Numbered from the stretch's first letter, positions 30,301-61,670 are shown. The stretch: 64,000 bases of DNA from SAR324 cluster bacterium (GCA_015231885.1 JADGAT010000012.1:5890-69889); one strand, 5' to 3'. A program made the numbers and translations. The notes: generated from the letters alone by a model not told the origin.

Positions 30301-32254
30301 AATCCGGGGCTTTCGTGTCGAATTAGGAGAAATCAAGGCAAGAATTTTGGAATACTTTCGGGTTCAAGATGCCTTTGTCACCGCAAAAGATCTGGGAAGA
30401 GAGCATCAGGAACTGGTAGCCTATCTTGTTAGCAATGACGAGGTCAGCGTGACAGAACTCCGAGTGCATTTGAAACAACTGCTTCCTGACTATATGATCC
30501 CGGCCTATTTCGTCCCTGTTAATGAAATCCCCTTAACCCCCAACAACAAAGTTGATAGGAAGGCGCTGCCGGAACCAATAGCCCTGAGTTTGGATCTTGG
30601 TACAGATTACCATCCTCCCCGGAATGAATTGGAACAGCAGATTGCCATCATCTGGCAGGAAGTTTTAGGTCATAACCGAGTGGGGATTCATGACAATTAT
30701 TTTGCTCTTGGAGGGGATTCCATCAAGGCGATTCAGGTAGTCTCAAAATTCTATGAAAGGAACTTAAAGTTTGAAATTCGGCATCTCTTTAAGCATCAGA
30801 CGATTGCAGAATTGGTTCAGGATGTTGTCGTTGCGGAACGTAAAATTGACCAGAATGAGGTCACTGGTATTGTGCCGCTTACCGCAATTCAAACCTGGTT
30901 TTTTGAGCAATACCAACAGGAAAGGCAACACTATAATCAATCAGAATTGCTGGTTTCAAAAAAGCGGTTTGATCCGGAGGCTTTGCGTGCTGTTCTTACA
31001 AAAATTCAGGAGCACCATGATGCTCTGAGAATACGTTTTCGTTTTGAAGGAAAAAACATTATTCAGGAAATCTCAGGGTTGGATCATCCACTGAGTTTTG
31101 AAGTTATCGATCTTAGAGAAACAAAAGATGGAAATTCCCGGATGAATTCTCATATCAATTCAACCCATGCTCATATCAATTTGGAAAAAGGACCTTTAAT
31201 GAATGTGGTCTTGTATCAGTTGGAAGATGCTGATCGCTTATTGATGGTTATCCATCACCTGGTTATTGATGGGGTGTCATGGAGGATTTTATCCAATGAC
31301 ATTGCTCAGGGGTACCATCTCTTTACCCTTGGTAAGCCTATTCGTTTTAACTCAAAGACGGATTCTTTCAAATACTGGTCTGAGCAAATTCGACAATACT
31401 GCCAGACCGAGGAGTTGCTGAAGGAAAAAATGTATTGGAATACCATCGAATCGACGCACGTCAAAGCTCTTCCCAGGGATTTTAGCACTCCCGGGAAAAG
31501 TCTCCTGGAGCATACTCAAACCAGGACGATTGTCTTTTCAGAAAATGAAACTGGTGCTCTTCTCACACAGAGCAATCATGCCTTCAATACCCAAGTCAAT
31601 GACCTGCTGTTGACTGCTTTGGCGCGGACTATGACCCAATGGCATGGTGACCAGACAACCCCAATCATGTTAGAGGGGCACGGTAGGGAAGCATTCCACG
31701 ATTTGAATATCAGCCGAACCGTCGGTTGGTTCACGACCCTCTTCCCGGTAATTTTGCAACTCCCCCGTTCAGACGAATTGGACCATCAAATCAAACACAT
31801 TAAGGAATTGCTGAGGAAGGTTCCCAACAAAGGAATGGGTTATGGTCTTTTGCGTTATCTCTCTTCGAAAACTGAAAAAGGCGATTTGTCGTCTCACAAA
31901 CAGCCTCTAATCAGTTTTAATTATTTAGGGCAGTTCGATGAAGAATCCAGTGAACTCTTTCGCCCTGCAGAAGAATCCTCAGGAGATGCTATTAGTCCCA
32001 GAGCGGCTTTTCTTTATGATTTAGAAATCAACGGCCTTGTGGCGAATAGACAATTAGAATTTTCTATTCGATACAATGCTCAGCACTACAAATCTGAAAC
32101 TATTGATCAAATTGGAGCTTCCTTTAAGAAACATCTGGTAGAAATCGTTCTCTACTGCAGACAGATCAAAGAGAGTCATCTCACCCCCAGCGATATAGAT
32201 TATGATGGCTTGAACATCGAGGAACTGGAGGAGGTGTTAGACAGCTTGCCATAA
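26636..32254 (+). CDS. NRPS: (C-domain C-terminal remnant)-A(Thr code, interrupted by a radical-SAM/B12 insert)-PCP-E
   Basis: The N-terminal ~240 aa resembles only the C-terminal half of a C domain (FKDFWSKQL..., YTHQNFPLDLV) and lacks HHxxxDG. A motifs A1-A2 lie before ~27700 and A3-A10 run from 29505 to 30580. Pocket D-F-W-N-I-G-M-V-H. PCP YFALGGDSIKA (~30700). E-domain motifs PLTAIQTWFFE, HHLVIDGVSW, EGHGRE, RTVGWFTTLFPV, FNYLGQFD (~30840-32230). Confidence 0.95.
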   Translation: MDNSRISLTSSEYGHFKDFWSKQLRLLDDSFQFTLNKSVGSQTRQMKQISFCLEVSQQETISDITRDSPLETFIILLSAYYILLSRYMNTNEVVVNTPLLSQKSIDTLYAPHVSLIGSISPEDSLKDLIIKTNQTVSNSYTHQNFPLDLVTSQKQLKHLDQLTNVFMTFDEIHRAPEDLGLYDFVIEINRPPESLLTQIKIRYNAGMFDEPFMLNLITHYKNIVSDFKDLKSSLKNVKILNETEVDQLLNHFNNTRADFPKDKTLVHLYEEQAAKTPDAIAVVFDDQGYTYQEINERANQLAHFLKNRYYIGPGDFVAIILDRSEWIVVAMLGILKAGGAYLPIEPDTPLIRIQHMLDDTRASVVLSKEMLVGNRSFSHYQEDISNSITPFIAPARPTIIDLDSIPHPNRTLIDYDKYAPHIQQAMVSNCVSVMATRGCPFKCAYCHMIMSKTHKFRTAEHIFEEIAMLYETGCRRFSFVDDIFNVNRKNTKDFFKLVIDHKLDVQFFFPNGVRGDILSPDYIDLMVEAGTVSMAFALETASPRLQKFIDKRMRIDKLNEAIQYTTKNHPHVITELFSMHGFPTETEEEAMMTLDFIKSIHWLDFPYVHMVHIYPNTEMVKLAAQANISEEAIERSKSLYYHEIPETIPFSKSFTRKYQAAFVNDYFLNRERLLSVLPNQMKVLTENEIVQKYDSYLPVEIQSFEDLLNFIGVQKGDLGEVEFRKIEEFHVPHLNDKLKKYFPGSQPEPGAYKILLLDLSQFFSHESYMIDHLIEVPLGLMCLLTYLEEKLGNKIEGKIIKSRLDFDNFNELKKIIEDFQPDLIGVRALSLYRDFFHKTISLIRQWGIDVPIVGGGPYASSSYTTMLSDSNIDILVNGEGEETFYELIKIIMDNDRKLPETEVLKRIQGIVFVENKKQLFAEKAFYRHVLFLEYLEETLSQQPSENLNSHPVPQDLAYVLYTSGSTGFPKGCLITHQNVVRLIKNDKHLFDFNNQDVWIMAHSYSFDFSVWELYGAMLYGGMVVIPLRDEIQDTAKFLGKIKKYQVTILNQTPPAFINFIKQAINEEEKRLDDHLRYVIFGGDKFEPSYMKPWVEVYPLSKIQLINMYGITETTVHVSFCRITESDIFSPEVISPLGHPIPETTVYICDENMNLLPVGVPGEMYVGGTGLGKGYLNQPELTSQRFISNPFEENSRLYKTGDLGRWLSDGSLEYLGRNDDQVQIRGFRVELGEIKARILEYFRVQDAFVTAKDLGREHQELVAYLVSNDEVSVTELRVHLKQLLPDYMIPAYFVPVNEIPLTPNNKVDRKALPEPIALSLDLGTDYHPPRNELEQQIAIIWQEVLGHNRVGIHDNYFALGGDSIKAIQVVSKFYERNLKFEIRHLFKHQTIAELVQDVVVAERKIDQNEVTGIVPLTAIQTWFFEQYQQERQHYNQSELLVSKKRFDPEALRAVLTKIQEHHDALRIRFRFEGKNIIQEISGLDHPLSFEVIDLRETKDGNSRMNSHINSTHAHINLEKGPLMNVVLYQLEDADRLLMVIHHLVIDGVSWRILSNDIAQGYHLFTLGKPIRFNSKTDSFKYWSEQIRQYCQTEELLKEKMYWNTIESTHVKALPRDFSTPGKSLLEHTQTRTIVFSENETGALLTQSNHAFNTQVNDLLLTALARTMTQWHGDQTTPIMLEGHGREAFHDLNISRTVGWFTTLFPVILQLPRSDELDHQIKHIKELLRKVPNKGMGYGLLRYLSSKTEKGDLSSHKQPLISFNYLGQFDEESSELFRPAEESSGDAISPRAAFLYDLEINGLVANRQLEFSIRYNAQHYKSETIDQIGASFKKHLVEIVLYCRQIKESHLTPSDIDYDGLNIEELEEVLDSLP
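27860..29460 (+). other. ~530-aa insert in the A2-A3 loop of the Thr-code A domain: a class-B-like radical SAM core followed by a B12-binding Rossmann domain (order permuted relative to canonical B12-rSAM enzymes)
   Basis: CxxxCxxC at nt 27950-27973 (ATRGCPFKCAYC). ETGCRRFSFVDDIFNVNRK. AFALETASPRL...MHGFPTETEEEAMMTL. Then ILLLDLS...DLIGVRALS...VPIVGGGPYAS...DILVNGEGEETFYEL (B12-binding-type motifs). The A domain resumes with SENLNSHPVPQDLAYVLYTSGSTGFPKG. Confidence 0.8.

Positions 32255-61670: not shown

Follow-up and report, generated by a model that had tools for sequence, protein, structure and literature searches.

Non-ribosomal peptide synthetase (NRPS) assembly lines without a release domain in cis are a known theme, and new release chemistry has come from NRPS lines that lack a thioesterase (TE). 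The surugamide-type NRPSs work with penicillin-binding-protein (PBP)-type TEs, such as SurE, PenA, Ulm16, WolJ and FlkO. PBP-type TEs, first reported in 2018, are stand-alone cyclases in which a PBP domain is combined with a lipocalin-like, eight-stranded beta-barrel domain; by head-to-tail lactamization they link the two ends of a peptide, a free L-residue at the N-terminus and a D-residue at the C-terminus, and those of the SurE type prefer a D-configured aromatic terminal residue (PMC11735501). Here we analyzed a hybrid NRPS/polyketide synthase (PKS) gene cluster on a 64,000-nucleotide stretch of DNA from a SAR324 cluster bacterium (GCA_015231885.1 JADGAT010000012.1:5890-69889; hereafter the window). 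This cluster is like the surugamide-type ones in having no TE in cis, a predicted D-configured terminal residue and a beta-lactamase-fold gene that travels with it. We found that the missing release domain is a trait of a whole family of terminal NRPSs, and that the beta-lactamase-fold protein, judged by its sequence and its model, is not SurE-like.

Other described systems resemble single parts of the cluster. In the hand-overs from GrsA to GrsB, TycA to TycB and SrfAA to SrfAB of Bacillus, a protein that ends in a peptidyl carrier protein (PCP) and an epimerization (E) domain with a short acidic TPSD tail is followed by one that starts with a DCL condensation (C) domain bearing a ...YALTPMQEGMLF head, as at one junction of the window. 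The precedents for an exported S12 enzyme are the ClbP-type prodrug peptidases and the resistance peptidases BogQ and TriF, the last of which prefers D-aromatic residues. Together with alkaline D-peptidase these share the S12 fold, the SxxK and YxN motifs and an export signal with the beta-lactamase-fold protein of the window, and enzymes of the ClbP, BogQ and TriF kind share with it the linkage to an exporter and to an NRPS that makes D-residues. Lastly, the type II thioesterases (TEIIs) RedJ, which acts in release, and RifR and SrfD, which act in editing, are stand-alone alpha/beta-hydrolases of 250 aa with a GHSMG motif, as is the TEII of the window.

Two epimerization-domain ends and the missing release domain

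Two NRPS proteins of the window, named here like the others by the first nucleotide of their genes (Table 1), end in PCP-E with intact HH motifs, as the initial annotation had stated. In the 26636 protein (1872 aa) the GGDSI motif of the PCP at residue 1359 is followed by HHLVIDG (1540), EGHGRE (1680) and FNYLG (1761). In the 55518 protein (2050 aa), which has the order C-PCP-C-A-PCP-E (A, adenylation domain), GGDSI is at residue 1561 and is followed by HHLLVDG (1743), ESHGRG and FNYLG (1964). Each end carries the HHxxxDG, Glu and FNYLGQ motifs of an E domain with a GGDSI PCP upstream, and the ESHGRG of the terminal E domain retains the first Glu of the EGHGRE-type motif. In blastp comparisons the SrfAB E domain scored 336 and 293 bits against the terminal domains of the 26636 and 55518 proteins, respectively, whereas the SrfAB C domains scored 54 bits or less, and these far better scores with the E domain indicate that both terminal domains are genuine members of the E family. 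With the catalytic motifs kept in both, the two E domains look active on sequence grounds, which leaves intact a point on which the earlier proposal had depended. The stop codon had been placed directly after FNYLGQFD in both proteins. This was incorrect, as a further 111 residues follow in the 26636 protein (the rest of the E domain and a 24-residue tail) and 86 in the 55518 protein.

There is no TE, reductase (R) or releasing C domain in any megasynthase, NRPS or PKS, in agreement with the initial annotation. Pfam searches identified neither a Thioesterase domain (PF00975) nor an NAD_binding_4 reductase domain in the six megasynthases. No cryptic TE or R sequence was found in the six frames of the window by tblastn with nine type I TE and three R tails, which matched only carrier-protein segments. 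The C domain that closes the 15955 protein is complete and belongs to a module split over the 35-nt gap to the 26636 gene. We also considered whether the terminal E domain could be a releasing C domain in disguise; this had no support, all E motifs being kept in all orthologues.

A TE- or R-containing gene immediately outside the window would have undercut this result. The flanks were taken from a sister assembly that is 99.8-99.9% identical to the window (L001 on the left, L089 on the right). The left flank holds genes for Ddl, a substrate-binding protein and TerB, and the right flank a P-type ATPase gene and then a DUF697-like gene (L089 3421-3606). No TE or R gene is present in these flanks, of which ~4.3 kb to the left of the window and ~2.0 kb to its right were covered.

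The TE-less PCP-E end is conserved across seven orthologues of the terminal NRPS from several lineages. Four of these (P0002, P0003, P0108 and P0120) are 2040-2054 aa long and 48-65% identical, share one set of Pfam domains and lack a TE, and the NRPS genes of two further loci, L007 and L008, also end at the E domain. The latter came from a metagenome scan with the C1-PCP1-C2 junction, which returned 79 loci; the whole query was matched only in L007 and L008, and the rest, being generic PCP-C matches, were left out. All seven orthologues share the A-domain code DASTIAAVCK and a C-PCP first module without an A domain (window 55518-57150).

The A-domain codes were read against a GrsA reference sequence. 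From code-to-substrate assignments, we take the DASTIAAVCK of the 55518 protein to be a Tyr code and the DFWNIGMVHK of the 26636 protein to be a Thr code. The terminal residue is predicted by code to be a PCP-bound D-Tyr. The initial annotation had given D-Tyr by code without separating the two NRPS ends; the prediction holds for the 55518 protein and fails for the 26636 protein with its Thr code.

Nor are the two ends equivalent, as had been assumed. In an alignment of terminal regions, the tail of the 26636 protein, TPSDIDYDGLNIEELEEVLDSLP, matches up with the tails of SrfAB and GrsA, which are of the COM-donor type. No such tail is present on the 55518 protein or on P0002, P0003, P0108 and P0120, in all of which the E domain is the last element. 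The N-terminus of the 55518 protein, MFDKKNVKNIYALTPMQEGMLF, is a COM-acceptor-like head, and the score of its first C domain was 333 bits against the DCL domain at the SrfAB N-terminus and 129 bits against LCL domains. The donor expected by a DCL domain is D-configured. L008, a metagenomic locus, encodes a 26636-type orthologue (43-45% identity, without the radical-SAM insert described below, and with the tail EITPHDIDFDGFDIDELDDFLDDL) directly upstream of the 55518-type orthologue. These features have the hallmarks of a COM-domain docking pair, from which we infer that the 26636 protein hands its chain to the 55518 protein. Based on the donor tail, the DCL domain and the gene adjacency in L008, the E domain of the 26636 protein appears to be an internal hand-over point and not a terminus, the residue epimerized there being Thr by code; only the 55518 end would be a true terminus. 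The predicted partners differ from those of Bacillus in that their genes are 23 kb apart, and in that the Bacillus lines finish with a TE in cis and the window line does not.

The thioesterase and the exported beta-lactamase-fold protein

The initial annotation had named three candidates for release in trans: the TEII (2958-3734), an alpha/beta-hydrolase (given as 32324-33430) and the beta-lactamase-fold protein (4272-5606). All three genes exist, and of their products only the TEII stays plausible for this role. It has the ~250 aa, PF00975 match, GxSxG motif and C-terminal His of a type II thioesterase, and its best matches in the PDB were RedJ, RifR and SrfD. Orthologues with 69% identity are present in two other SAR324 assemblies (L086 and L087), where the gene order of 379-aa protein, TEII, small protein, beta-lactamase and ABC transporter is kept. 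Of the candidate hydrolases, the TEII alone has neither an export signal nor a membrane anchor, and since the beta-lactamase-fold candidate is exported, no other release enzyme in the window is plausible. Release by the TEII is our best guess.

The alpha/beta-hydrolase gene in fact spans 32324-33472, and the N-terminus of its product has a Lys-rich segment followed by a hydrophobic helix. As a membrane-anchored member of the proline iminopeptidase family, it is unlikely to act in release, and we rejected it as a trans TE.

The beta-lactamase-fold protein has the complete PBP-type catalytic set, with S130-x-x-K133, Y228-x-N230 and H374-x-G376 invariant in the homologue alignment. Its description as an extracytoplasmic lipoprotein was borne out. 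A Lys/Arg-rich N-terminus leads into a hydrophobic helix and the lipobox FFIGC; the SAR324 orthologues (65-66% identity) keep a lipobox (LVNGC, FIHGC), as do the L005 and L006 homologues, and the L008 homologue has an ordinary, non-lipoprotein signal peptide. Judged by eye from the sequence pattern, all six homologues have an export or lipoprotein signal. The gene lies beside a cyclic-peptide ABC exporter gene in L005, L006, L008, L086 and L087.

The relatives of this protein are D-stereospecific hydrolases. A phmmer search of the PDB placed alkaline D-peptidase at 8.1e-36 and Ulm16 at 3.5e-5, and SurE was not among the matches at 1e-3; DD-carboxypeptidase and R61 were the other best solved relatives by sequence. 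The catalytic domain ends at about residue 405 of 444. The AF2 model (pLDDT 78, pTM 0.81) shows a single PBP domain, then one helix and a disordered tail, and no lipocalin-like C-terminal beta-barrel was found in the model or the domain map. The top Foldseek matches were again single-domain enzymes, with D-stereospecific hydrolases, alkaline D-peptidase, R61 and D-amino-acid amidase in front (TMt ~0.85), with ClbP at rank 34 and SurE at rank 37 (17% identity).

These comparisons in sequence and model run counter to the proposed role as a PBP-type cyclase. In contrast to the PBP-type TEs of surugamide-type systems, the protein is exported, consists of one domain without a lipocalin part, and falls among the D-peptidases and not with SurE. 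The predicted substrates also differ: that of the window would have a C-terminal D-Tyr and, as its N-terminus, a polyketide acyl chain, so that no free N-terminal amine would be available for lactamization. The PBP-type TEs named in the review are from Streptomyces products (PMC11735501), and the present protein is from SAR324. Its fold, signal, relatives and linkage to NRPS and exporter genes match those of exported S12 D-stereospecific peptidases, and it is probably such an enzyme, predicted to cleave its substrate after export. It differs from ClbP in having no C-terminal membrane helices, and the cluster has no N-acyl-D-Asn prodrug module. For annotation purposes, the gene would be better described as encoding a likely periplasmic processing or resistance peptidase than a cyclase.

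The gene following the terminal NRPS in L003 encodes a chemoreceptor. In L005 several small unannotated open reading frames (ORFs) come next, and then DUF481, beta-lactamase and ABC genes; the latter three follow the terminal NRPS in L006, and beta-lactamase and ABC genes do so in L008. The core of the family may comprise an A-PCP-E protein, a C-PCP-C-A(Tyr)-PCP-E protein, an exported S12 enzyme, a cyclic-peptide ABC exporter and, often, a DUF481 outer-membrane protein. The absence of a cis release domain is here conserved in a family, always in company with an exported D-hydrolase and a peptide exporter. A literature search for SAR324 NRPS/PKS products returned nothing specific, and the cluster offers a testable system in uncultured marine SAR324, which have no known natural products.

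Proposed assembly order and possible routes of release

The 15955 protein is the sole protein led by a ketosynthase (KS) that has no upstream partner, and its coiled N-terminus is like those of both PKS modules. The most economical and most likely arrangement, judged by these sequence features and by those of the docking pair, is a single line in the order 35889, 39722, 45520, 15955, 26636 and 55518, and its product would be read as one polyketide-Gly-Val-D-Thr-X-D-Tyr line and not as two. The account that we tentatively prefer, as possible and no firmer than that, joins this line to hydrolysis by the TEII in trans, SyrD-type export and periplasmic action of the S12 protein. The chain would start on the A-KR-ACP protein (KR, ketoreductase; ACP, acyl carrier protein), pass through the PKS modules 39722 and 45520 and be transferred to the 15955 protein, where Gly and Val would be added. 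It would then be joined to Thr on the 26636 protein, epimerized there and passed by the COM-type docking pair to the 55518 protein. The DCL domain there would receive the chain, and the protein would add a unit on the PCP without an A domain and then Tyr, the last E domain giving D-Tyr. The peptidyl-D-Tyr thioester would most likely be hydrolyzed in trans by the TEII, and the product would leave via the SyrD-type ABC transporter. In the periplasm, the S12 lipoprotein may trim, activate or detoxify the product at a D-residue, with no part in off-loading from the synthetase.

Several observations weigh against this account. Editing and releasing TEIIs are inseparable by sequence. The TEII gene of the window is 12 kb from the nearest synthetase gene and, unlike those of RedJ, RifR and SrfD, has exporter and peptidase genes and no synthetase gene as its partners. 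In L005, L006 and L008, the relatives from outside SAR324, no TEII was seen in the sequence examined, and these too have no TE in cis; a release mechanism common to the family, if there is one, would therefore not be the TEII. The pairing of the 26636 and 55518 proteins is read from sequence only, and in L005 and L006 the terminal NRPS has the same N-terminus but has KSIII, ACP and short-chain dehydrogenase/reductase (SDR) genes, not an E-ending NRPS, upstream. Finally, the right flank covers only ~2 kb and was seen in a sister strain.

The L005 and L006 loci, in which no E-ending NRPS is in view beside the terminal-type NRPS, could also be taken to mean that there are two independent lines, each ending in PCP-E and each in need of release, and in the window three reverse-strand genes (32324-34893) separate the synthetase blocks. 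We consider this very unlikely, as only the 55518 protein, whose DCL domain needs a D-configured donor, could partner the COM-donor tail of the 26636 protein, the orthologues of the two are adjacent in L008, and the 15955 protein, itself led by a KS, comes without a loading module. The least probable reading is that a SurE-like PBP-type cyclase, either the 4272-5606 protein or an unseen paralogue, off-loads and cyclizes the D-Tyr chain in trans. The terminal residue would be D-configured and aromatic, as SurE-type enzymes prefer (PMC11735501), the SxxK, YxN and HxG motifs are intact, and a beta-lactamase-fold gene accompanies the NRPS family in every relative seen; nevertheless, the export signals of all six homologues, the missing lipocalin-like domain, the closer kinship to alkaline D-peptidase, R61 and D-amidases than to SurE or Ulm16, and the predicted acylated N-terminus all argue against such a role.

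A release enzyme elsewhere in the genome, be it a reductase, a cytoplasmic TE of the PBP type or a discrete TE resembling those of type I, is unlikely, though it would account for the relatives that have neither a TE in cis nor a TEII nearby. The TEII/beta-lactamase/ABC cassette is on a different contig from the synthetases in the assembly of L002, L003 and L087, and there is no synthetase within 10 kb of it in L086, which indicates that parts of the pathway can be scattered. On the other hand, nothing of the kind was found in the 64 kb, in the sister-strain flanks or in six related loci, and the cluster already has a TEII. Non-canonical off-loading is slightly less probable still. The KSIII/carrier/SDR set might take the chain from the last PCP, e.g., by Claisen extension of the D-Tyr thioester with a malonyl carrier protein, or release might fall to a condensation-family domain, the candidates for the latter being the terminal E domain or the DCL domain with the A-less PCP. 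The Cys-His-Asn triad of the KSIII is intact, the window, L005 and L006 all keep the KSIII, ACP and SDR genes ahead of the terminal NRPS (L003 has the ACP and SDR), and the A-less C-PCP module is shared by all seven orthologues. However, the KSIII cassette is absent from the L008 contig, which is still TE-less; a KSIII, ACP and KR are more simply read as a supply of building blocks or as the ACP and KR missing from the 15955 KS-AT (AT, acyltransferase); and the E domains keep all epimerase motifs. To our knowledge there is no precedent for KSIII or condensation-family release of such a kind. Equally speculative, and in our opinion improbable, is the broader notion of a conserved NRPS family, scattered across lineages, that releases a D-Tyr-ended chain by a mechanism not yet described. 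If this were true, the KSIII/carrier set or a condensation-family domain would off-load the chain onto another nucleophile, and the target of the exported S12 protein would be the D-Tyr carbonyl in a cyclic or carrier-bound intermediate, linked as an ester or amide, in a periplasmic maturation analogous to that by ClbP but at a C-terminal D-residue.

Cluster layout and accessory genes

The features of the window are listed in Table 1.

Table 1. Features of the SAR324 window, with positions counted from its first nucleotide.
Feature	Position	Strand	Remarks
DUF697 paralogues (n=4)	437-958, 1282-1773, 14912-15736, 35115-35870		two directly 5' of synthetase operons
Type II thioesterase (TEII)	2958-3734	-	stand-alone; GHSMG, C-terminal GGHFF; Pfam Thioesterase 2.9e-40
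Small two-helix membrane protein	3952-4167	+	ORF 5' of beta-lactamase-fold gene
S12 (beta-lactamase-fold) lipoprotein, D-stereospecific peptidase/amidase type	4272-5606	+	lipobox FFIGC; Pfam Beta-lactamase 8.8e-48
HEAT/TLC protein	between 4272-5606 gene and ABC exporter		
ABC exporter, cyclic-peptide type (SyrD family)	9667-11292	+	TIGR01194 338.7 bits, cutoff 286.2
Orphan 128-aa ORF	11341-11727	-	A-domain A10 remnant (LPLTHAGKVNRKALP) and PCP (GGHSV)
MinD/ParA-like ATPase	14154-14891		precedes DUF697 gene 14912-15736
15955 protein, KS-AT-(no ACP)-C-A(~Gly)-PCP-C-A(~Val)-PCP-C	15955-26601	+	ends in complete LCL C domain
26636 protein, first part	26636-30865	+	C-domain remnant, A (Thr code, interrupted), PCP (GGDSI)
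Radical-SAM/B12 insert in 26636 A domain	27743-29449	+	
E domain of 26636 protein	30866-32179	+	HHLVIDG, EGHGRE, FNYLGQF
COM-donor-type docking tail and stop codon	32180-32254	+	TPSDIDYDGLNIEELEEVLDSLP; aligns with SrfAB and GrsA tails
Alpha/beta-hydrolase	32324-33472	-	proline iminopeptidase family; membrane-anchored
A-KR-ACP loading protein (PKS)	35889-39737	+	no TE
PKS module KS-AT-DH-KR-ACP	39722-45523	+	no TE
PKS module KS-AT-DH-KR-ACP	45520-51207	+	no TE; acidic docking-like C-terminal tail
FabH-like KSIII	51204-52259	+	intact Cys-His-Asn triad
Sulfotransferase (Sulfotransfer_1)	~52285-53148	+	free-standing; between KSIII and carrier protein
Discrete carrier protein	53172-53459	+	
FabG-like SDR	53464-54168	+	
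Acyl-CoA-ligase-like enzyme (MenE/FadD-like)	54165-55505	+	stand-alone
Terminal NRPS (55518 protein), first part	55518-60350	+	DCL C, PCP without A, LCL C, A (Tyr code), PCP (GGDSI)
Terminal E domain	60351-61670	+	HHLLVDG, ESHGRG, FNYLGQF; without docking tail or release domain
2-Hydroxyacyl-CoA-dehydratase-alpha-like protein (HGD-D)	61696-62898	+	26 nt after terminal NRPS
Sfp-type PPTase	62955/62961-63740	+	with HGD-D-like gene marks right cluster edge

The KS-AT of the 15955 protein (window 15955-19000) has intact DTSCSSS, HGTGT and KTNLGH motifs and, in the AT, GHSVG and HAFH; a C domain comes next, without an ACP. Possible trans partners of this KS-AT are the discrete carrier protein and the FabG-like SDR. 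In the window, L005 and L006 the terminal NRPS gene is directly preceded by the KSIII, ACP and SDR genes, and in L003 the sulfotransferase, ACP, SDR and ligase part is at the start of the locus examined. A stand-alone ligase gene of the 54165-55505 type is upstream in the window, L003 and L005, and was not seen in L006 and L008. Beta-lactone formation of the OleABCD kind was ruled out, as the KSIII is nearer to FabH (1e-66) than to OleA (~1e-12) and the SDR is FabG-like.

The sulfotransferase gene was seen only in SAR324 loci (the window and L003) and not in L005, L006 and L008. A curacin-type decarboxylative release by a sulfotransferase-TE pair was ruled out, the sulfotransferase being free-standing, with no TE beside it, and seen in the SAR324 loci alone. 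It may transfer sulfate to the Tyr phenol or to a polyketide hydroxyl.

The Thr-type A domain of the 26636 protein has an insert of ~570 aa between core motifs A2 and A3, which contains Radical_SAM (aa 436-597) and B12-binding (aa 776-887) domains. The insert is absent from the L008 orthologue (1478-5449), which aligns across the gap, and we know of no A domain described as interrupted by a radical-SAM domain. No activator ATPase was seen for the lone HGD-D-like protein. This protein and the loading protein may be connected, as A-KR-ACP would make a 2-hydroxyacyl starter.

A genome-contig scan with the HGD-D-like protein returned a single relative, L002. In this related metagenome-assembled genome the Ddl, substrate-binding protein and TerB block, which is to the left of the window here, is directly after the PPTase gene (L002 1390-7476), and this difference in position means that the cluster is rearranged or inverted relative to conserved flanking genes. 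In L003, ~7 kb of toxin-antitoxin and unrelated genes (Uma2, Peptidase_S74, HicAB and VapBC; 3176-9951) lie between the ligase and the terminal NRPS.

The L086 contig (GCA_002753255.1 PDZZ01000048) has a second TEII/beta-lactamase/ABC/DUF697 cassette that is only 65-69% identical to that of the window. Its assembly also holds the contigs that are 99.8-99.9% identical to the window (L001 and L089); either this genome has two paralogous cassettes or the bin is mixed. The small ORF at 3952-4167 has a 63-aa gene at the equivalent place in L086 and L087. The orphan ORF at 11341-11727, just 3' of the ABC exporter gene, has no counterpart at the equivalent place in these two loci and is either a free-standing carrier protein or a fragment of an NRPS gene. 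Several unrelated-looking genes are present between the ABC exporter and the 15955 gene. The three reverse-strand genes at 32324-34893 encode the alpha/beta-hydrolase, EcsC and an ECF sigma factor and are followed by a DUF697 gene; a fifth, DUF697-like start was observed just past the right edge of the window.

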